Shown: one piece after another, positions 5,283 through 17,197 of the stretch
Layout of the letters: the number at the start of each line of letters is the position of its first letter
How positions within the stretch are numbered: position 1 is the first letter of the stretch
IMG/VR virus record: IMGVR_UViG_2565956714_000003
Reading direction: 5' to 3' (one strand)
Length of the DNA: 32,066 nt
From: a virus
Lineage: Duplodnaviria; Heunggongvirae; Uroviricota; Caudoviricetes
Program-made: the position numbers and the translations under genes
Notes under the pieces: generated by a model
The model's input: only the letters and a program-made list of their open reading frames with translations
Database searches by the model: none
Told to the model about the DNA's origin: nothing

Positions 5283-5972
5283 CTACCCATGCTTCCTATA
5301 TGTCTGCGGCATGCTCCCAATAACCTTACCGAAGATGAACACCCGGTTCATCTCGTCTTTCTCGATCGGGTCCCACGGTGAGTAGCTTTTGTTATCAGAG
5401 ATGACCAGCAGCTTATCCTTCATCATTTGCAGGCGCTTTACATGGGCTGTGTCGTCGTACAGAAACGCATAGATACCATCACCGTCGAAAGATTTAACTG
5501 TGATATCAACGAACAGCAGATCACCTGGTTCGATCGTTCCTGACATGCTGTCACCACGCACGTTAATGATGCGGATATTTTCCGCCTTCCTACCATCGAA
5601 CATATGACGAGCATCGTCAAACGAGTACTCAACCGAGCGTAGAACTTCTACAAACTCACGGTTGATGACTCCCGGCCCAGCACTGACTTCTATATCAAGA
5701 ACGTCAATCTTGAAGTATTTGGAATGGCTGACAGTTGATTGTATTGGTTGCACTGTACTGTCTGACATATTTCCAACGCCAGAAGATAACCATTCTGCGC
5801 GCACACCCAAAGCGTTCGCGATCTCCACGATTTTAGTTGTTTGATTAGCTTTCCCTGTTTCGATTTTCTGAATAGCAGCTTGGCTAACCCCGACCAAATC
5901 CCCAAGCGCCTTTTGTGTAAGGCCTCGCGCTAATCTGGCTTCTTTAAGTCTTTCTGAGAGTGTTGTTTTCAT
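5283..5972 (-). CDS. cI: CI-type prophage repressor (HTH_XRE N-domain, LexA/S24 peptidase-like C-domain)
   Basis: ORF with HTH LTQKALGDLVGVSQAAIQKIETG, an Ala-Gly (SAGPG) candidate autocleavage site, and GDSM...VKRL Ser-Lys dyad motifs; divergent from cro; start assigned to Met at 5972, while the track ORF reads through the operators to 6038. Confidence 0.85.
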   Translation of the reverse strand: MKTTLSERLKEARLARGLTQKALGDLVGVSQAAIQKIETGKANQTTKIVEIANALGVRAEWLSSGVGNMSDSTVQPIQSTVSHSKYFKIDVLDIEVSAGPGVINREFVEVLRSVEYSFDDARHMFDGRKAENIRIINVRGDSMSGTIEPGDLLFVDITVKSFDGDGIYAFLYDDTAHVKRLQMMKDKLLVISDNKSYSPWDPIEKDEMNRVFIFGKVIGSMPQTYRKHG

Positions 5973-6076
5973 AGTCCAAATGTACAACCAAGGTTTTATT
6001 TCATCAAACGAAAATGGTTGTTGACTAAAAACAACCATAGTTTTAATCTTGATTCAAATTAACCACGGAGGTTGTT
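5973..6076. promoter_or_regulatory. OR operator / divergent promoter region between cI and cro
   Basis: Heptamer ACAACCA at 5984..5990 and 6031..6037, TGGTTGT at 6016..6022; perfect inverted repeat ATGGTTGTT-N7-AACAACCAT (6014..6038) overlapping a TTGACT -35-like hexamer (6021..6026) with TTTAAT -10-like hexamer at 6042..6047. Confidence 0.7.
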
Positions 6077-6307
6077 ATGAACCCAGCTATCAAAACAGCG
6101 ATCAATATCGTTGGTTCACAAAAGAAACTGGGCGCTGCTTGCGAAGTTTCACAGCAGGCCGTCTATAAGTGGCTTCACAACAAAGCAAAGGTATCCCCTG
6201 AACATGTCGGCAGCATTGTTACGGCTACTGGTGGAGTAGTGAAGGCATACCAGATTCGCCCGGATCTTCCGAAGTTGTTTCCACACACCGAAAAGAACGC
6301 AGCTTAA
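6077..6307 (+). CDS. cro: Cro-like repressor (YdaS-family small HTH protein)
   Basis: 76-aa ORF divergent from cI; RBS GGAGG; HTH-like segment KKLGAACEVSQQAVYKWL. Confidence 0.8.
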   Translation: MNPAIKTAINIVGSQKKLGAACEVSQQAVYKWLHNKAKVSPEHVGSIVTATGGVVKAYQIRPDLPKLFPHTEKNAA

Positions 6308-6319
6308 ATTTCCATTTCA

Positions 6320-6332
6320 CGCTCTTTAACAA
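6320..6332 (+). promoter_or_regulatory. boxA-like antitermination motif downstream of cro
   Basis: CGCTCTTTAACAA matches the boxA consensus (lambda CGCTCTTA; rrn-type TGCTCTTTAACAA) at the position nutR occupies in lambda; no obvious boxB hairpin follows. Confidence 0.45.
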
Positions 6333-6376
6333 TAAGCAATCAACTTAACAGTCAATTCAAACTAAAGGAGTCAATT

Positions 6377-6916
6377 ATGCAACCACTTACATACCAACAG
6401 ACTAGCGGATTTAGCCCGACTGCGGTGATAAATCGTTCTCAAACAAAACAGGTGCCAGGCCACGAAAAAATCCGTGATGCCGTCCGCGCTTGGTCGGCTG
6501 AAGATAATCAGGATGTCGTTGCCACACTCATTGTGAATGAGTATCGGGAGCAGGGCGGCGGCACCATCGATTTCCCTGATGATGTCAGCCGTGCACGCCA
6601 GAAGCTGTTCCGCTTCCTCGATAACAAATTCGATTCTGAAAAATACCGAAATAACGTGCGTGAACTGACCCCGGCAATTCTGGCGGTACTACCGCTGGAA
6701 TATCGCGGTTACCTGGTTGAGCAGGATAGCTTCATGGCTAGGTTGGCTGAAATGGAAAAGGAACTCAGTGAGGCAAAACAGGCTGTCATTCTCAACGCAC
6801 CACGCCACCAGAAACTGAAGGAAATTAGTGAAGGTATTGTGTCGATGTTTCGTGTGGACCCAGATCTGGCTGGTCCATTGATGGCGATGGTTACTACCAT
6901 GCTGGGGGCGATATGA
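6377..6916 (+). CDS. CII-position regulatory protein, YdaT-like (179 aa)
   Basis: ORF with RBS AAGGAG between cro and O; motifs EYREQGGG and LTPAILAVLPLEYR resemble Rac YdaT as I remember it. Confidence 0.55.
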   Translation: MQPLTYQQTSGFSPTAVINRSQTKQVPGHEKIRDAVRAWSAEDNQDVVATLIVNEYREQGGGTIDFPDDVSRARQKLFRFLDNKFDSEKYRNNVRELTPAILAVLPLEYRGYLVEQDSFMARLAEMEKELSEAKQAVILNAPRHQKLKEISEGIVSMFRVDPDLAGPLMAMVTTMLGAI

Positions 6917-7002
6917 CAGGTTCAGAAATGGCGAAAGCCGGTCTGCTGGAACAGAACCGACTTTCAGGTGCAAATCGTAACACACTCATTGCGGGAGGAA
7001 TT

Positions 7003-7932
7003 ATGGCAAACACTGCTGAGATATTCAATTTTCCAGTGCCGGATGCGGCACAAAAGGAGCCGCGCGTGGCAGATCTCGATGATGGTTATACGCGCATTGC
7101 AAATGAGTTGCTGGAAGCTGTGATGCTGGCCGGATTAACACAGCACCAGCTTCTGGTCTTCCTGGCTGTCATGCGCAAAACATATGGCTTTAATAAAAAA
7201 CTGGATTGGGTGAGCAACGAGCAACTTTCCGAGTTGACCGGGATATTGCCGCACAAGTGTTCTGCTGCAAAAAGTGTTCTGGTAAAGCGTGGGATTTTTA
7301 TTCAGAGCGGGCGGAATATCGGCATTAATAATGTGGTCAGTGAATGGTCAACATTACCCGAATCAGGTAAGAAAAATAAAGTTTACCTGAAAGAGGTAAA
7401 TTTACCTGAATCAGGTAAGAAAAGTTTACCCAAATCAGGTAAAGGCACTTACCCGAATCAGGTAAACACAAAAGACAAACTAACAAAAGACAATATAAAA
7501 CCTTATTCGTCCGAGAATTCTGGCGAATACTCTGACCAGCCAGAAAACGACCTTCCTGTGGTGAAACCGGATGCTGCGATTCAGAGCGGCAGCAAGTGGG
7601 GGACAGCAGAAGACCTGACCGCCGCAGAGTGGATGTTTGACATGGTGAAGACCATCGCGCCATCAGCCAGAAAACCGAATTTTGCAGGGTGGGCTAACGA
7701 TATCCGCCTGATGCGTGAACGTGACGGACGTAACCACCGCGACATGTGCGTGCTGTTCCGCTGGGCATGCCAGGACAACTTCTGGTCCGGTAACGTGCTA
7801 AGTCCGGCCAAACTCCGTGACAAGTGGACCCAACTCGAAATCAACCGTAACAAGCAACAGGCTGGAGTGACAGCCGGAAAATCAAAACTGGACCTGACAA
7901 ACACTGACTGGATTTATGGGGTGGATTTATGA
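7003..7932 (+). CDS. O: Replication initiator O (non-lambda N-terminal iteron-binding domain, lambda-type C-terminal domain)
   Basis: C-terminal ~100 aa near-identical to lambda O (...WMFDMVKTIAPSARKPNFAGWANDIRLMRERDGRNHRDMCVLFRWACQDNFW...); N-terminal half differs from lambda O; RBS GGGAGG before ATG 7003; the track ORF starts upstream at 6913. Confidence 0.9.
   Translation: MANTAEIFNFPVPDAAQKEPRVADLDDGYTRIANELLEAVMLAGLTQHQLLVFLAVMRKTYGFNKKLDWVSNEQLSELTGILPHKCSAAKSVLVKRGIFIQSGRNIGINNVVSEWSTLPESGKKNKVYLKEVNLPESGKKSLPKSGKGTYPNQVNTKDKLTKDNIKPYSSENSGEYSDQPENDLPVVKPDAAIQSGSKWGTAEDLTAAEWMFDMVKTIAPSARKPNFAGWANDIRLMRERDGRNHRDMCVLFRWACQDNFWSGNVLSPAKLRDKWTQLEINRNKQQAGVTAGKSKLDLTNTDWIYGVDL
7354..7465. 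repeat. Replication origin iterons (five ~17-bp repeats) inside the O coding region, followed by an A-rich segment
   Basis: TTACCCGAATCAGGTAA (7354..7370), TTACCTGAAAGAGGTAA (7383..7399), TTACCTGAATCAGGTAA (7402..7418), TTACCCAAATCAGGTAA (7426..7442), TTACCCGAATCAGGTAA (7449..7465); each has an internal TTACC...GGTAA dyad; A-rich stretch 7466..7510. Confidence 0.85.
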
Positions 7933-8630
7933 AAAACATCGCCGCACAAATGGTTAACTTTGACTGTGAGCAGATGCGTCGGATCGCCAACAACATGCCG
8001 GAACAGTACGACGAAAAGCCACAGGTACAGCAGGTAGCGCAGATCATCAACGGTGTGTTCAGCCAGTTACTGGCAACTTTCCCGGCGAGCCTGGCTAACC
8101 GTGACCAGAATGAACTGAACGAAATCCGCCGCCAGTGGGTTCTGGCTTTCCGGGAAAACGGGATCACCACAATGGAACAGGTTAACGCAGGAATGCGCGT
8201 AGCCCGTCGGCAGAATCGACCATTCCTGCCATCACCCGGGCAGTTTGTCGCCTGGTGCCGGGAAGAAGCATCCGTTACCGCCGGGCTGCCAAACGCCAGC
8301 GAGCTGGTTGATATGGTTTACGAGTATTGCCGGAAGCGCGGGCTGTATCCGGATGCAGAGTCTTATCCGTGGAAATCAAACGCGCACTACTGGCTGGTTA
8401 CCAACCTGTATCAGAACATGCGGGCCAATGCGTTGACTGACGCGGAATTACGGCGCAAGGCTGCCGATGAACTGTCCTGTATGACCGCACGAATTAACCG
8501 TGGTGAGGCTATACCTGAACCAGTAAAACAACTTCCTGTCATGGGCGGTAGACCTCTAAATCGTGCACAGACTCTGGCGAAGATCGCAGAAATCAAAGCT
8601 AAGTTTGGGCTGAAAGGAGCAAGGGTATGA
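7929..8630 (+). CDS. P: Replication protein P (DnaB helicase loader)
   Basis: 233-aa ORF near-identical to lambda P (MKNIAAQMVNFDCEQMRRIANNMPEQYDEKPQVQQVAQIINGVFSQLLATFPASLANRDQNE...); ATGA overlap with O. Confidence 0.97.
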   Translation: MKNIAAQMVNFDCEQMRRIANNMPEQYDEKPQVQQVAQIINGVFSQLLATFPASLANRDQNELNEIRRQWVLAFRENGITTMEQVNAGMRVARRQNRPFLPSPGQFVAWCREEASVTAGLPNASELVDMVYEYCRKRGLYPDAESYPWKSNAHYWLVTNLYQNMRANALTDAELRRKAADELSCMTARINRGEAIPEPVKQLPVMGGRPLNRAQTLAKIAEIKAKFGLKGARV

Positions 8631-8929
8631 CGGGCAAAGAGGCAATTATTCATTACCTGGGGACTCATAAGAACTTCTGTGCGCAGGACGTTGCCGCGGT
8701 AACAGGCGCAACCGTAACCAGCATAAATCAGGCTGCGGCTAAAATGGCGCGGGCAGGAATCCTGGTCGTTGATGGTAAGGTCTGGCGAACGGTGTATTAC
8801 CGGTTCGCTACCAGAGAAGAACGGGAAGGAAAGGTGAGCACGAATCTGATTTTTAAGGAGTGTCGCCAGAGTGCCGCGATGAAACGGGTATTGAGGGTAT
8901 ATAAAAGAACATCAATGGGTACACAATGA
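8627..8929 (+). CDS. ren: Ren protein (lambda-like)
   Basis: ORF MTGKEAIIHYLGTHKNFCAQDVAAVTGATVTSINQAAAKMARAGILVVDGKVWRTVYYRFATREEREGK... matches lambda Ren. Confidence 0.9.
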   Translation: MTGKEAIIHYLGTHKNFCAQDVAAVTGATVTSINQAAAKMARAGILVVDGKVWRTVYYRFATREEREGKVSTNLIFKECRQSAAMKRVLRVYKRTSMGTQ

Positions 8930-8996
8930 TGAAACAGGTGAGTTGAGTTCAAACTGTAGTACAATTCTCTCCAGTTTGAACAGGAAAGAATATGCT

Positions 8997-9329
8997 ATGA
9001 ACCCTTATATTTATCTTGGTGGTGCAATACTTGCAGAGGTCATTGGTACAACCTTAATGAAGTTTTCAGAAGGTTTTACACGGTTATGGCCATCTGTTGG
9101 TACAATTATTTGTTATTGTGCATCATTCTGGTTATTAGCTCAGACGCTGGCTTATATTCCTACAGGGATTGCTTATGCTATCTGGTCAGGAGTCGGTATT
9201 GTCCTGATTAGCTTACTGTCATGGGGACTTTTCGTCCAACGGCTGGACCTGCCAGCCATTATAGGCATGATGTTGATTTGTGCCGGTGTGTTGGTTATTA
9301 ATCTATTGTCACGAAGCACACCACATTAA
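8997..9329 (+). CDS. emrE: Small multidrug resistance (SMR) efflux transporter EmrE
   Basis: 110-aa ORF MNPYIYLGGAILAEVIGTTLMKFSEGFTRLWPSVGTIICYCASFWLLAQTLAYIPTGIAYAIWSGVGIVL... recognised as EmrE (four TM helices, conserved membrane Glu in the first helix). Confidence 0.95.
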   Translation: MNPYIYLGGAILAEVIGTTLMKFSEGFTRLWPSVGTIICYCASFWLLAQTLAYIPTGIAYAIWSGVGIVLISLLSWGLFVQRLDLPAIIGMMLICAGVLVINLLSRSTPH

Positions 9330-9359
9330 AAATAATTTGTTTCTAAACTACTAAAATAT

Positions 9360-9400
9360 GGAGGCTCTTATATTTATATGAGCCTCGTTTTATGCTTTTT
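9360..9400 (+). terminator. Rho-independent terminator downstream of emrE
   Basis: Stem GGAGGCTC/GAGCCTC with AT-rich loop, followed by GTTTTATGCTTTTT. Confidence 0.6.
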
Positions 9401-9585
9401 GTTAATGTCTTTATTTTTTTATGTATTCTTTTGTGCTTTCAAGATTATGGCGTAAGAAAATTGCAATACGATTATTGTTGTATATTCAAGATAATGTGAC
9501 CTTAATTGTCTTTTTAAATAAAAATTAAACAAAAATTATATCCCACCACTAATGTTTATAAAAGCATACGTTAGCAGGTGTCACC

Positions 9586-11112
9586 ATGAAAAAAGCCATA
9601 GCATATATGCGATTTTCATCACCAGGTCAGATGTCTGGCGACTCATTAAACCGACAGAGAAGACTTATTGCTGAATGGTTAAAGGTAAATAGTGATTATT
9701 ATCTTGATACCATAACATATGAAGATTTAGGATTAAGTGCATTCAAAGGAAAGCATGCACAATCAGGAGCTTTTTCGGAATTTTTAGATGCTATAGAGCA
9801 TGGTTATATATTGCCAGGAACTACATTGTTAGTTGAAAGTCTGGACAGACTTTCAAGAGAAAAAGTCGGTGAAGCGATTGAACGTCTGAAATTGATTTTG
9901 AATCACGGTATTGATGTTATAACTCTTTGCGACAATACAGTCTATAATATTGACTCTTTGAATGAGCCATATTCATTAATAAAAGCCATACTTATAGCAC
10001 AAAGGGCAAATGAAGAAAGCGAGATAAAGTCAAGTCGGGTTAAATTATCATGGAAGAAAAAACGGCAGGATGCACTGGAATCAGGTACGATTATGACGGC
10101 GTCTTGTCCGAGATGGCTCTCCTTAGATGACAAAAGAACGGCTTTTGTTCCAGACCCCGACAGGGTGAAAACTATTGAGCTAATTTTTAAACTCAGGATG
10201 GAAAGGCGCTCATTGAATGCAATAGCCAAGTATTTAAATGATCATGCTGTAAAGAATTTCTCAGGAAAAGAAAGTGCATGGGGACCTTCTGTAATTGAAA
10301 AATTATTAGCGAATAAAGCTCTGATAGGTATATGCGTACCTTCATATCGTGCAAGAGGGAAAGGAATAAGTGAAATCGCGGGCTATTATCCCAGAGTCAT
10401 ATCAGATGATTTGTTTTACGCTGTACAGGAAATTCGGTTGGCACCTTTTGGTATTAGCAATAGTAGCAAGAATCCTATGCTAATAAATCTACTTCGAACA
10501 GTTATGAAGTGTGAGGCTTGTGGTAATACCATGATTGTTCATGCGGTATCTGGAAGTTTGCATGGCTATTATGTTTGTCCGATGAGAAGATTACATCGAT
10601 GTGACAGGCCATCAATAAAAAGAGATTTGGTTGATTATAATATCATTAATGAATTGCTTTTTAATTGTAGCAAAATTCAACCAGTTGAAAACAAGAAAGA
10701 TGCTAATGAAACTTTAGAGTTAAAAATTATTGAGCTTCAGATGAAAATTAATAATTTAATCGTTGCATTGTCTGTCGCGCCTGAAGTTACCGCTATAGCA
10801 GAGAAAATAAGACTATTAGATAAGGAATTACGAAGGGCTTCGGTATCATTGAAAACTTTGAAGAGTAAAGGTGTAAATTCATTCAGTGATTTTTATGCTA
10901 TTGACTTAACCAGTAAAAATGGACGAGAGTTATGCCGTACACTTGCCTATAAAACATTCGAAAAAATCATAATTAATACGGATAATAAAACCTGTGATAT
11001 CTATTTTATGAATGGCATTGTTTTTAAACACTATCCTTTAATGAAAGTAATATCCGCCCAGCAGGCGATAAGTGCTCTCAAATATATGGTTGATGGTGAG
11101 ATTTATTTCTAA
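9586..11112 (+). CDS. ybcK: Large serine recombinase (resolvase/invertase-type catalytic domain plus recombinase and Cys-rich zinc-ribbon region)
   Basis: 508-aa ORF; N-terminal AIAYMRFSSPGQ matches the serine-recombinase active-site motif Y-x-R-x-S-x3-Q; Cys cluster CEACGN...CPMRRLHRCDRP; gene body AT-rich. Confidence 0.85.
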   Translation: MKKAIAYMRFSSPGQMSGDSLNRQRRLIAEWLKVNSDYYLDTITYEDLGLSAFKGKHAQSGAFSEFLDAIEHGYILPGTTLLVESLDRLSREKVGEAIERLKLILNHGIDVITLCDNTVYNIDSLNEPYSLIKAILIAQRANEESEIKSSRVKLSWKKKRQDALESGTIMTASCPRWLSLDDKRTAFVPDPDRVKTIELIFKLRMERRSLNAIAKYLNDHAVKNFSGKESAWGPSVIEKLLANKALIGICVPSYRARGKGISEIAGYYPRVISDDLFYAVQEIRLAPFGISNSSKNPMLINLLRTVMKCEACGNTMIVHAVSGSLHGYYVCPMRRLHRCDRPSIKRDLVDYNIINELLFNCSKIQPVENKKDANETLELKIIELQMKINNLIVALSVAPEVTAIAEKIRLLDKELRRASVSLKTLKSKGVNSFSDFYAIDLTSKNGRELCRTLAYKTFEKIIINTDNKTCDIYFMNGIVFKHYPLMKVISAQQAISALKYMVDGEIYF

Positions 11113-11310
11113 ATAATGATCTTGGATTTTAAGTTATGCTATGATGATAAAGTGCAAGACAGAATTAATTATCTTTAACGAAACTTAATGGGTAATTACT
11201 TTGTTTGCTCCCACAAGCGAGTTTTGTACGGCTGTATTGGGGTAGTAAATGAGCTATACAATCTTAATCATTTGTTAGGTGAGAACTCTTGGTCGCAGAT
11301 TCAAATACTG

Positions 11311-11360
11311 AAAATACGTGACAAATTATTATGAGCAAAATGGTGTATGTCACGTATTTT
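11311..11360. repeat. 50-bp palindromic element: 13-bp perfect inverted repeats flanking a 24-bp spacer
   Basis: AAAATACGTGACA (11311..11323) and its exact reverse complement TGTCACGTATTTT (11348..11360) in the AT-rich ybcK-ybcL intergenic region. Confidence 0.8.
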
Positions 11361-11575
11361 GAATGGTAGGTTAAAAAATAACACCGACTTTCGTAGGTAT
11401 TACTAATAATAAAGCAGAGTTTTTAATAGTATCAATGTGCTTTGTGTATATTGTGGCAAATAATTGGGTTGGGGGTACAATTGTGATTGCTTTTGCATGA
11501 ACATTGCGCCTTTATGCATAATGAGATAAAGGAATATCAAATAAAATAACGATAGGTCATAACAAAGAGGTTTTT

Positions 11576-12127
11576 ATGAAAACACTTATCGTTTCAACTG
11601 TATTGGCATTCATAACATTTTCTGCGCAGGCTGCAGCATTTCAGGTCACTAGTAATGAAATAAAAACAGGAGAGCAACTTACAACGTCTCATGTCTTTTC
11701 TGGATTTGGGTGTGAAGGTGGTAATACATCGCCCTCATTAACCTGGTCTGGTGTTCCTGAAGGTACCAAAAGCTTTGCCGTAACTGTATATGATCCAGAT
11801 GCACCTACAGGCAGTGGTTGGTGGCATTGGACTGTTGTTAATATTCCAGCAACAGTAACATATTTGCCCGTTGATGCAGGAAGACGTGATGGAACAAAAC
11901 TGCCGACTGGTGCTGTTCAAGGCCGAAATGATTTTGGCTATGCTGGGTTTGGTGGCGCATGTCCTCCTAAAGGAGATAAACCACATCATTACCAGTTTAA
12001 AGTATGGGCTCTAAAAACTGAAAAGATTCCTGTAGATTCTAACTCCAGCGGAGCGTTAGTTGGTTATATGCTTAATGCTAATAAAATCGCAACCGCTGAG
12101 ATAACACCAGTTTATGAGATAAAGTAG
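11576..12127 (+). CDS. ybcL: Periplasmic PEBP/RKIP-family protein (UPF0098)
   Basis: 183-aa ORF with signal peptide MKTLIVSTVLAFITFSAQA and PEBP-like core (YDPDAP...GWWHW...HHYQFKVWAL). Confidence 0.9.
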   Translation: MKTLIVSTVLAFITFSAQAAAFQVTSNEIKTGEQLTTSHVFSGFGCEGGNTSPSLTWSGVPEGTKSFAVTVYDPDAPTGSGWWHWTVVNIPATVTYLPVDAGRRDGTKLPTGAVQGRNDFGYAGFGGACPPKGDKPHHYQFKVWALKTEKIPVDSNSSGALVGYMLNANKIATAEITPVYEIK

Positions 12128-12136
12128 GGTGAGAGT

Positions 12137-12934
12137 ATGCTGGCAAGAGGTAAGACTAACTTAAAGATCGAAGAAATACGGATGCATAAACATCATGAGA
12201 TTCATAGGGTTAAGCCTCTTATGCCAGCTTTGTGTCGTATCCGTCAGGGAAAGAAAGTTATCAATTGGGAGACGCATACTTTAACTGTTGATAATAATCA
12301 AATAATATTATTTCCTTGTAGTTATGAATTTTATATTGAGAATTATCCTGAAGCAGGGCTTTATCTTGCAGAAATGCTTTACTTACCCATTGATTTAATT
12401 GAGAGGTTCCAAAAACTTTATACGGTAACTGATCAAATACGTAACAAAACAAGTTTCTTTTTACCTCAGAATCCTGAGTTAATATATTGTTGGGAGCAAC
12501 TAAAAACATCTGTTTCCCGAGGCTTCTCAACTAAAATTCAGGAGCACTTAGCAATGGGCGTTCTACTTTCGTTAGGAGTGAATCATGTTAATCATTTACT
12601 TTTATCATATAGTAAACAATCATTGATAAGTCGTTGTTATAACCTGCTGCTATCCGAACCCGGCACAAAATGGACAGCAAACAAGGTTGCACGATATCTC
12701 TACATTTCTGTTTCTACATTACATCGCCGTCTAGCAAGCGAGGGGGTAAGTTTCCAAAGTATACTGGACGATGTGAGGTTAAATAATGCGTTGTCTGCTA
12801 TACAAACGACGGTAAAACCTATAAGCGAGATTGCCAGAGAAAATGGTTATAAGTGTCCTTCTCGTTTTACTGAAAGATTTCATAATCGTTTTAATATAAC
12901 ACCAAGAGAGATAAGAAAAGCTTCCAGAGAGTAA
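12137..12934 (+). CDS. ybcM: AraC-family transcriptional regulator
   Basis: 265-aa ORF starting 9 nt after the ybcL stop (operon-like); C-terminal AraC-type HTH region ([21 protein letters not shown]...[18 protein letters not shown]). Confidence 0.85.
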
Positions 12935-15203: not shown

Positions 15204-16131
15204 TAATCAGATTAGAACTGGTAAACCAGACCTACAGCAACGATGTCATCAGTGCTTACACCGAGTGCTTTAGTGAAGTCATTTTTGTCAAGCAGGTTGA
15301 TTTTGTAATCAACGAAAGTAGACATATTTTTGTTGAAGTAATAGGTTGCACCTACATCAACATATTTGACTAAGTCCTGATCGCCCCATACTCCAAGATC
15401 TTTACCTTTAGATTGCAGGTAAGCAACGGACGGACGCAGACCGAAATCGAACTGATATTGTGCAACAGCTTCGAAGTTTTGGGCTTTATTAGCAACGAAG
15501 TGATCAGCAAATACAGTCATATTCTGGGTTTCAGAATAGGTAGTGGCCAGGTAAATGTTGTTAGCGTCATATTTCAGACCTGCGGCCCAAACTTCTGCAT
15601 TTTTACCGGAAGCAAATACTTCAGGAAGAACTTTCCCTGCATTAACTTGAGTGTCGGTACGATCAGATTTCGCATAAGTTGCACCGATACCGAATCCTTC
15701 GTATTCATAGGTAGCAGAGAAACCGAAGCCATCACCGTTACCTTCAGTGTAGTTATCGAAATCGCTACGATCGTTTTTGCCTTGGTACTGAGCAGCAAAG
15801 TTCAGACCATCAACCAGACCAAAGAAGTCGTTGTTACGATAGGTTGCAACACCAGTGGTGCGACCAGTCATGAACACATCTGTTTGGGTCCAGGTATCGC
15901 CACCGAATTCTGGCAGAACGTCAGTCCACGCACCGATGTCGTATGCTACACCGTAGTTACGGCCGTAATCGATTGAGCCGTAGTCACCGAATTTCAGGCC
16001 TGCAAATGCAAGACGGGTTTTGTCTTTGGAGGAACCTTGAGATTCAGCGCGGTTGCCTTTGAATTCATATTCCCACTGACCGAAACCAGTCAGTTGATCG
16101 TTGATTTGGGTTTCACCTTTGAAGCCAAGAC

Positions 16132-16140
16132 GGGCATAAG
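16132..16140. repeat. Target-site duplication (left copy) GGGCATAAG
   Basis: Identical 9-mer directly flanks both IS ends (16132..16140 and 17198..17206). Confidence 0.95.
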
Positions 16141-17197
16141 GGCTTTGTTGAATAAATCAGATTTCGGGTAAGTCTCCCCCGTAGCGGGTTGTGTTTTCAG
16201 GCAATACGCACGCTTTCAGGCATACCTGCTTTCGTCATTTTGTTCAGCGCTCGTACCAGGGCCATAGCCTCCGCAACCTGACCATCGTAGTCACGCAGCG
16301 TCAGTGAACCCCCGAACAGCTGTTTTACCCGGTACATCGCCGTTTCCGCTATCGAGCGACGGTTGTAATCTGTTGTCCATTTCCACCGCGCATTACTCCC
16401 GGTCATTCGCTGATTAGCCACTGCACGGTTACGGTCTGCATATTCACCGGGCCAGTAACCCGCACCTTTTCGGGGAGGGATAAGCGCGCTGATTTTCTTA
16501 CGCCGCAGTTCATCGTGACATAGCCGGGTATCGTAAGCGCCATCGGCGGCGGCTGACCTGATTTTCCGGTGGGTTTGCCGGATTAACCCGGGGAAGGCCT
16601 CTGAGTCCGTAACGTTGTTCAGCGACAGGTCAGCGCAGATGATTTCATGTGTTTTACTGTCAACGGCGAGATGCAGCTTACGCCAGATACGGCGGCGTTC
16701 CTGGCCATGCTTTTTGACTTTCCACTCGCCTTCACCGAAGACCTTCAGCCCGGTGGAATCAATTACCAGGTGTGCGATTTCACCCCGGGTGGGCGTTTTG
16801 AAACTGACATTAACCGACTTTGCCCGCCTGCTGACACAGCTGTAATCCGGGCAGCGTAGCGGAACGTTCATCAGAGAAAAAATGGAATCAATAAAGCCCT
16901 GCGCAGCGCGCAGGGTCAGCCTGAATACGCGTTTAATGACCAGCACAGTCGTGATGGCAAGGTCAGAATAGCGCTGAGGTCTGCCTCGTGAAGAAGGTGT
17001 TGCTGACTCATACCAGGCCTGAATAGCTTCATCATCCAGCCAGAAAGTTATGGAGCCACGGTTGATGAGGGCTTTATTGTAGGTGGGCCAGTTGGTGATT
17101 TTGAACTTTTGCTTTGCCACGGAACGGTCTGCGTTGTCGGGAAGATGCGTGATCTGATCCTTCAACTCAGCAAAAGTTCGATTTATTCAACAAAGCC
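16141..17197 (-). mobile_element. IS903/IS102-type insertion sequence (IS5 family), complete, 1057 bp
   Basis: Perfect 18-bp terminal inverted repeats GGCTTTGTTGAATAAATC (16141..16158) and GATTTATTCAACAAAGCC (17180..17197); 9-bp direct target duplication; one transposase ORF. Confidence 0.9.
16197..17165 (-). CDS. IS903-type transposase (DDE)
   Basis: 322-aa ORF filling the IS; start 32 bp inside the right inverted repeat. Confidence 0.85.
   Translation of the reverse strand: MKDQITHLPDNADRSVAKQKFKITNWPTYNKALINRGSITFWLDDEAIQAWYESATPSSRGRPQRYSDLAITTVLVIKRVFRLTLRAAQGFIDSIFSLMNVPLRCPDYSCVSRRAKSVNVSFKTPTRGEIAHLVIDSTGLKVFGEGEWKVKKHGQERRRIWRKLHLAVDSKTHEIICADLSLNNVTDSEAFPGLIRQTHRKIRSAAADGAYDTRLCHDELRRKKISALIPPRKGAGYWPGEYADRNRAVANQRMTGSNARWKWTTDYNRRSIAETAMYRVKQLFGGSLTLRDYDGQVAEAMALVRALNKMTKAGMPESVRIA

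Follow-up and report, generated by a model that had tools for sequence, protein, structure and literature searches.

The window, a stretch of viral DNA of 32,066 nt, carries on its plus strand a replication initiator gene, O, at 7003..7932. The assignment rests on an open reading frame of 309 aa, on alignment with lambda O and on a full-length match to the Pfam model Phage_rep_O (PF04492; E=7.5e-34, 116.6 bits against a cutoff of 28.7). The Phage_rep_O match delimits an N-terminal origin-binding domain at residues 21-115, counted from ATG 7003 (7063..7347, plus strand), and alignment with lambda O delimits a lambda-type C-terminal domain, presumed to interact with P, at residues 171-309 (7513..7929, plus strand). 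The O stop codon is overlapped (ATGA) by the gene for the helicase loader P (7929..8630, plus strand; Pfam Phage_lambda_P, PF06992, E=8e-62), which is followed by ren (8627..8929, plus strand), an open reading frame that is the counterpart of ren in related phages and whose homology to lambda ends at about 8885. P is identical to lambda P at 227 of 233 residues, as expected from the initial annotation, which had described P as essentially that of lambda. On the other side of O, Pfam matches identified an S24/HTH repressor gene (5283-6038, minus strand), a YdaS/Cro-like gene in the position of cro (6077-6307) and a YdaT-family gene in the position of cII (6377-6916). The genes in the cro and cII positions (6077-6916) are YdaS-like and YdaT-like, members of what Pfam terms 'toxin' families; in this they match the Rac prophage, and they are not lambda cro and cII. 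The 179-aa YdaT-like protein is labelled 'CII-like activator' in database annotations.

Two starts are available for translation of O. The frame is open from 6913 to 7932 (339 aa in the ORF list), and the ATG at 6913 overlaps the TGA of the upstream gene. Translation from this codon, coupled to the YdaT-like stop through the ATGA overlap, would give a 339-aa protein with a 30-residue N-terminal extension, and it is this long form that is annotated in phage Turner and in E. coli DETEC-P1056. The orthologue in E. coli H10 was assigned by PGAP to the equivalent of 7003 in a 930-nt form; hence, annotators disagree on the O start. Against the long form, homology to lambda O is found only from 7003 on and begins exactly at the Met encoded there (MANTAEIFNF compared to MTNTAKILNF in lambda). 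A Shine-Dalgarno sequence, GGGAGG, is located at 6993-6998 ahead of this codon, and the segment comprising both elements, GGAGnnATTATG, is kept in lambda and in Klebsiella phage GZ7. In addition, the frame is closed in GZ7 by a stop nine codons 5' of the homologous ATG, and the substitutions in 6913-7002 among E. coli relatives, read directly at a small number of sites, are mostly non-synonymous in the O frame. Together these comparisons indicate that O probably starts at the conserved ATG 7003, and that the in-frame extension on its 5' side (6913..7002, plus strand) is probably an untranslated stretch separating the YdaT-like gene from O; the 339-aa form appears improbable. The suggestion that the extension to 6913 is not used and that a good ribosome-binding site precedes ATG 7003 is therefore supported by the GZ7 stop, by the Shine-Dalgarno sequence and ATG shared with lambda and GZ7, and by the PGAP start in H10. 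For annotation, O should be given as starting at 7003 (309 aa) rather than at 6913.

A promoter-like site, TTGAAT-17-CATAAT, lies over the O start on the minus strand (7000..7028), in alignment with lambda and at the position of the lambda oop promoter pO; we regard it as a candidate only. Leftward of this site, we observed a 15-bp hairpin at 6932-6966 that lacks a proper U-tract (95-nt fold of -26.2 kcal/mol, z=-2.4). Among relatives, the hairpin has one stem substitution that preserves pairing (G-U to A-U) and two loop substitutions. In an Rfam scan of the whole window no family reached the gathering score, so that there is no curated oop-like RNA, and a terminator scan of 6600-7700 found none, which leaves a canonically terminated oop-like transcript unsupported.

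The coding sequence of O contains five copies of a 17-bp dyad with the motif TTACC-N7-GGTAA: iteron 1 (TTACCCGAATCAGGTAA, 7354..7370), an extra copy relative to lambda; iteron 2 (TTACCTGAAAGAGGTAA, 7383..7399), which is aligned to lambda iteron 1; iteron 3 (TTACCTGAATCAGGTAA, 7402..7418), a perfect dyad, with 16 of the 17 positions self-complementary, as many as an odd length permits; iteron 4 (TTACCCAAATCAGGTAA, 7426..7442); and iteron 5 (TTACCCGAATCAGGTAA, 7449..7465). The motif search at up to one mismatch returned exactly five sites in the window, where shuffled sequences are expected to give 0.57 and none of 100 shuffles reached five. When the 17-bp consensus was allowed up to three mismatches, no site beyond these five was found anywhere in the 32 kb. 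The start-to-start spacing is 29/19/24/23 bp, compared to 20/24/23 for the lambda iterons, and iterons 2-5 align column by column with lambda iterons 1-4. The array is followed by an A-rich block at 7466..7503 (26% G+C, 63% A), the presumed unwinding region, which contains two copies of a 15-bp direct repeat, ACAAAAGACAA, and then by an inverted repeat, TATTCGTCCGA / TCTGGCGAATA, round an EcoRI site (7504..7529), which is near-identical to the one on the right side of ori-lambda. With iterons, A-rich block and inverted repeat all in place, the anatomy of a lambda-type origin is complete, and the interval 7354-7529 could be annotated as a rep_origin. The number and positions of the five iterons (7354..7465, TTACC-N7-GGTAA core) that had been proposed by the initial annotation were confirmed by the motif search, as was the A-rich stretch after them. 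Not all five sites need be used, given that the centre of iteron 2 is off consensus and that the first copy in GZ7 is degenerate.

Because the iterons lie within a reading frame, they might be mere peptide repeats in a flexible linker of O, with the origin elsewhere or absent. The repeats do encode the series LPESGKK / LPESGKK / LPKSGK, an LPESGK-like repeat. The AlphaFold2 single-sequence model of O has no secondary structure at residues ~96-201, with a mean pLDDT of 41 for the model, which is too low for it to be used or counted; the O sequence had no match in the PDB, even at E=1. A peptide repeat, however, does not need units that are dyad-symmetric in DNA. Comparison of the window with GZ7 bears directly on this point: of the 85 iteron positions 7 differ, against 11 of the 27 spacer positions (Fisher p=2.6e-4), and within the TTACC/GGTAA arms the count falls to 1 of 50, while the N-domain DNA alongside is 78% identical. 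The arms have been kept far better than either the spacers or the adjoining coding DNA, which suggests that selection acts on the DNA sites as such. As judged from this alignment, iteron conservation tracks the DNA dyads and not the reading frame. Moreover, the site and spacing are as in the mapped iterons of lambda, and the P22 origin is annotated at the homologous place, and a mere peptide repeat is accordingly very improbable.

Comparison with lambda revealed a gene composed of segments with sharply different similarity. Residues 1-115 of O are 49% identical to lambda O, the iteron-encoded residues 116-155 form an unrelated segment (17% identical), and residues 171-309 are identical at 135 of 139 positions (97%). 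The DNA is 40-70% identical to lambda as far as about 7465; identity rises over 7466-7500, going from about 55% to 95% across the A-rich block, and then stays at about 95% until about 8885 in the 3' end of ren. This profile places the junction between lambda and non-lambda DNA at approximately 7466-7500, inside the A-rich block. A core of ~30 bp in this block, ACACAAAAGACA...ACAAAAGA (7466-7497), is common to lambda, P22, HK544 and GZ7, while the flanks of these origins are mutually unrelated. Since this core is the sole stretch common to all of these origins and sits at the joint, the A-rich block probably serves as a homology patch for module exchange.

The reality of the module boundary is supported by GZ7, whose O protein has counterparts in phages 6 LV-2017, RCIP0098 and KO-TP1. 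The N-domain of GZ7 (residues 1-115) is 83.5% identical to that of the window, and its origin has four exact TTACC-N7-GGTAA iterons plus the degenerate first copy, spaced as in the window, followed by the start of the A-rich block. In contrast, the C-domain of GZ7 is unrelated, and a DnaC-type helicase loader is encoded in place of P; the divergence of GZ7 from the window sets in within a few bases of the lambda junction. Across the same residues, the window N-domain is 65% identical to P22 gp18, ~49% to HK544 O and 40% to phi80, and it is 49% identical to phages 21 and 434, whose N-domains are of the lambda type. On this sequence evidence, the O gene reads as a mosaic in which two modules can be exchanged: the N-domain with the iterons, and the C-domain with the helicase loader, here of the lambda type. 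The former would set the origin specificity, here TTACC-N7-GGTAA and not the TCCCTC-N5-GAGGGA of lambda, and we infer that the specificity has changed with the interaction with P retained.

These results refine the initial annotation, which had viewed O as a chimera of a foreign N-terminal half and a lambda-like C-terminal third, swapped at the O linker. That the N-domain and iterons are unlike those of lambda is borne out by the 49% identity and the different iteron type; at this identity, however, the N-half is a homologue that differs from its lambda counterpart and not an unrelated, foreign domain. The C-domain is indeed of the lambda type, but it extends over residues 171-309, ~45% of the protein. 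The boundary does separate the iteron array from the C-domain, although crossing over is placed in the conserved A-rich block and not in a generic linker. Finally, the term 'chimeric' holds only relative to lambda as the reference. The arrangement is shared by a whole clade and hence does not reflect a recent event in the window.

To place the allele among known phages and bacteria, we compared it with a phage collection and with complete E. coli genomes. The O-P stretch (1,718 nt) has a full-length match in 15 phage records at 96.7-98.1% identity; the N-half with the iterons is 100% identical in PhiR26_1 and at least 95% identical in 16 records. Phages with the same allele include PhiR26_1, Turner, IdasGreatGrand, 4A7, Lambda_4C10, 1W, 3W and Perceval, and the allele is also present in E. 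coli prophages of the DLP12 family; the neighbours in these relatives are identical in kind, with a YdaT-like gene on the 5' side and ren, emrE and ybcK on the 3' side, and apart from small polymorphisms and one variant with a 15-bp deletion they do not differ from the window. At a coverage threshold of at least 80%, the segment 7003-7520 was found in 2,297 of 5,426 complete E. coli genomes (~40-42%), nearly all at 95% identity or more, compared to 1,325 of 5,426 for the equivalent lambda segment. The arrangement of the window is commoner in E. coli than that of lambda, and the commonest lambda-family origin among E. coli genomes is of a type other than lambda's own. The allele is already known from public phage and bacterial records, where it is annotated as O; carried by sequenced phages and by ~40% of the complete E. 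coli genomes, it is real but ordinary.

Two variants were observed among the relatives. In DETEC-P1056, at approximately 2965 of its locus (equivalent to 7468-7482 of the window), an in-frame 15-bp deletion has removed one copy of ACAAAAGACAA from the A-rich block. This deletion resembles the lambda mutations ori:95 and ori:96, which are in-frame deletions of 12 and 15 bp in the same region (PMC6022878), and the origin of the DETEC-P1056 prophage may be weakened by it. In phage D2 (OM475427; 1501-2522 of the compared locus), O is annotated as two CDSs. The first ~246 nt of this gene are of the window type (99.6%), after which the sequence switches, in the middle of the N-domain, to the lambda type with lambda iterons. 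Either the D2 gene is a recombinant that was joined within the DNA-binding domain and is also frameshifted, or the record reflects an artefact of assembly.

The genomic context of the module is that of a DLP12-family prophage. In H10, such a prophage is located beside a tRNA-Arg gene and contains intD ... repressor, YdaS-like, YdaT-like, O, P, ren, emrE and ybcK, followed further on by ybcN, ninE, ybcO, rusA, quuD, porin, essD and rrrD. The window has the same cargo. At 8943-12934 and 15212-17165 it carries, between ren and the nin genes, emrE (SMR efflux), the serine recombinase gene ybcK and genes for a PEBP-family protein and an AraC-family regulator, as well as a porin gene (nmpC position) that is interrupted by a DDE transposase (IS). 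The cargo and the cut porin gene follow the DLP12 pattern; O, P and the head genes are still present here. A SIR2-family gene is found between kil and the repressor in H10 (8600-10201 of its locus) and after P in DETEC-P1056 (4273 onward of its locus), and neither of these two positions is occupied by such a gene in the window; it may be mobile defence cargo.

This context raises the possibility that the module is a decayed, inert relic in a cryptic prophage, as in DLP12 of E. coli K-12, a view to which the IS-interrupted porin gene and the defects seen in relatives (a frameshifted ren in H10 and the A-rich block deletion in DETEC-P1056) could be taken to contribute. In the window, however, O, P and ren are all intact frames, the N-half and iterons are identical to those of PhiR26_1, and the O-P stretch is 97-98% identical to that of isolated phages. 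The presence of the same module in the isolated phages Turner, 4A7, PhiR26_1 and Perceval indicates that it supports phage growth, and we consider it very unlikely that the module is a relic.

The nin region of the window is 96.9% identical to a fragment of phage 82 (X92588). Phage 82 has its own origin specificity, and its O works with lambda P; these traits would fit the identification of the window origin as ori82, which we offer as a lead and not as a test. The phage collection contains X92588, which covers the nin region, and no phage 82 match to the iteron region was found there. Literature searches for text on the phage 82 origin, which had the 1979-81 ori papers outside their reach, gave nothing usable. 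Likewise, the TTACC-N7-GGTAA iteron sequence was found printed nowhere in the literature searched, a body that excludes those classical papers, and a lambdoid paper on Chi hotspots makes no mention of this origin type.

Taken together, the results suggest, with a probability of roughly 0.9, that O with its internal origin, followed by P and ren, forms the replication module of a lambdoid (DLP12/82-like) prophage, and that this module is a mosaic and widespread sequenced allele with lambda-like function. In lambda-type origins the iterons are bound by dimers of O (PMC6022878, PMC7466680), and in the two-domain model of lambda O the C-domain recruits P (PMC6022878). By homology to lambda, O dimers would bind the five 17-bp dyad iterons through the N-terminal Phage_rep_O domain, and the resulting O-iteron nucleoprotein complex would strain and open the adjoining A-rich block at 7466-7503. 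The O C-terminal domain, 97% identical to that of lambda, would then recruit P-DnaB, after which host factors are predicted to take over. A more speculative proposal, which we regard as unlikely, is that the TTACC-N7-GGTAA origin represents a biochemically uncharacterised specificity class, and that resident prophage copies cross-react with incoming phages of the same type by titrating O or by being fired. The presence of this origin on DLP12-like prophages in ~42% of complete E. coli genomes is what makes such cross-reaction conceivable, and, if it occurred, it would affect the outcomes of superinfection and recombination between prophage and phage. Beyond correct annotation, the importance of the locus is otherwise slight. 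The region does provide a clean natural example of modular lambdoid initiators, in which a specificity module and a loader-matching module are joined at a conserved A-rich patch.

Relative to known systems, the locus is closest in overall plan to lambda, with which it shares the O-P-ren order, an origin inside O, 17-bp dyad iterons at almost the same intervals, the A-rich block, the inverted repeat, and a C-domain and P that are each 97% identical. As in the lambda O-P pairing, the C-domain is homologous to lambda O residues ~160-299 and an adjacent P overlaps the O stop. The differences reside in the five TTACC-N7-GGTAA iterons, compared to four of TCCCTC-N5-GAGGGA in lambda, and in the N-domain with its 49% identity; by iterons and N-domain the window falls outside the ori-lambda specificity class of lambda, 434, 21 and the Stx phages. 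P22 gene 18 and its origin resemble the window in the N-domain, in TTACC/GGTAA-like iteron arms and in the same A-rich block, but differ in arm spacing and in the C-domain, and gp18 works with a different partner, the DnaB-type helicase gp12. Since the window C-domain does not align with that of P22 and its partner is P, it does not belong to the gene 18 / gene 12 module. P22 gp18 and HK544 O have related N-domains and their own iterons, and combine these with a third type of C-domain and a DnaB-type helicase. The Stx phages 933W and P27 have a lambda-type O-P module with six iterons, a number other than four adding residues to O (PMC7466680), and in Stx phages carrying six iterons good binding is confined to four of them (PMC7466680). 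Their iterons and N-domains are nevertheless of the lambda type, whereas the window differs in the specificity type itself. The lambda-82 and lambda-phi80 hybrids of the O protein (Furth and Yates 1978, cited in PMC6022878) provide a precedent for the arrangement. According to that secondary account, the N-half of O determines origin specificity, the C-half determines specificity for P, and crossovers inside O are viable. On the same account, the exchange of O halves among lambdoid phages has been part of classical genetics since 1978; those hybrids were made in the laboratory, whereas the arrangement described here is natural and widespread.
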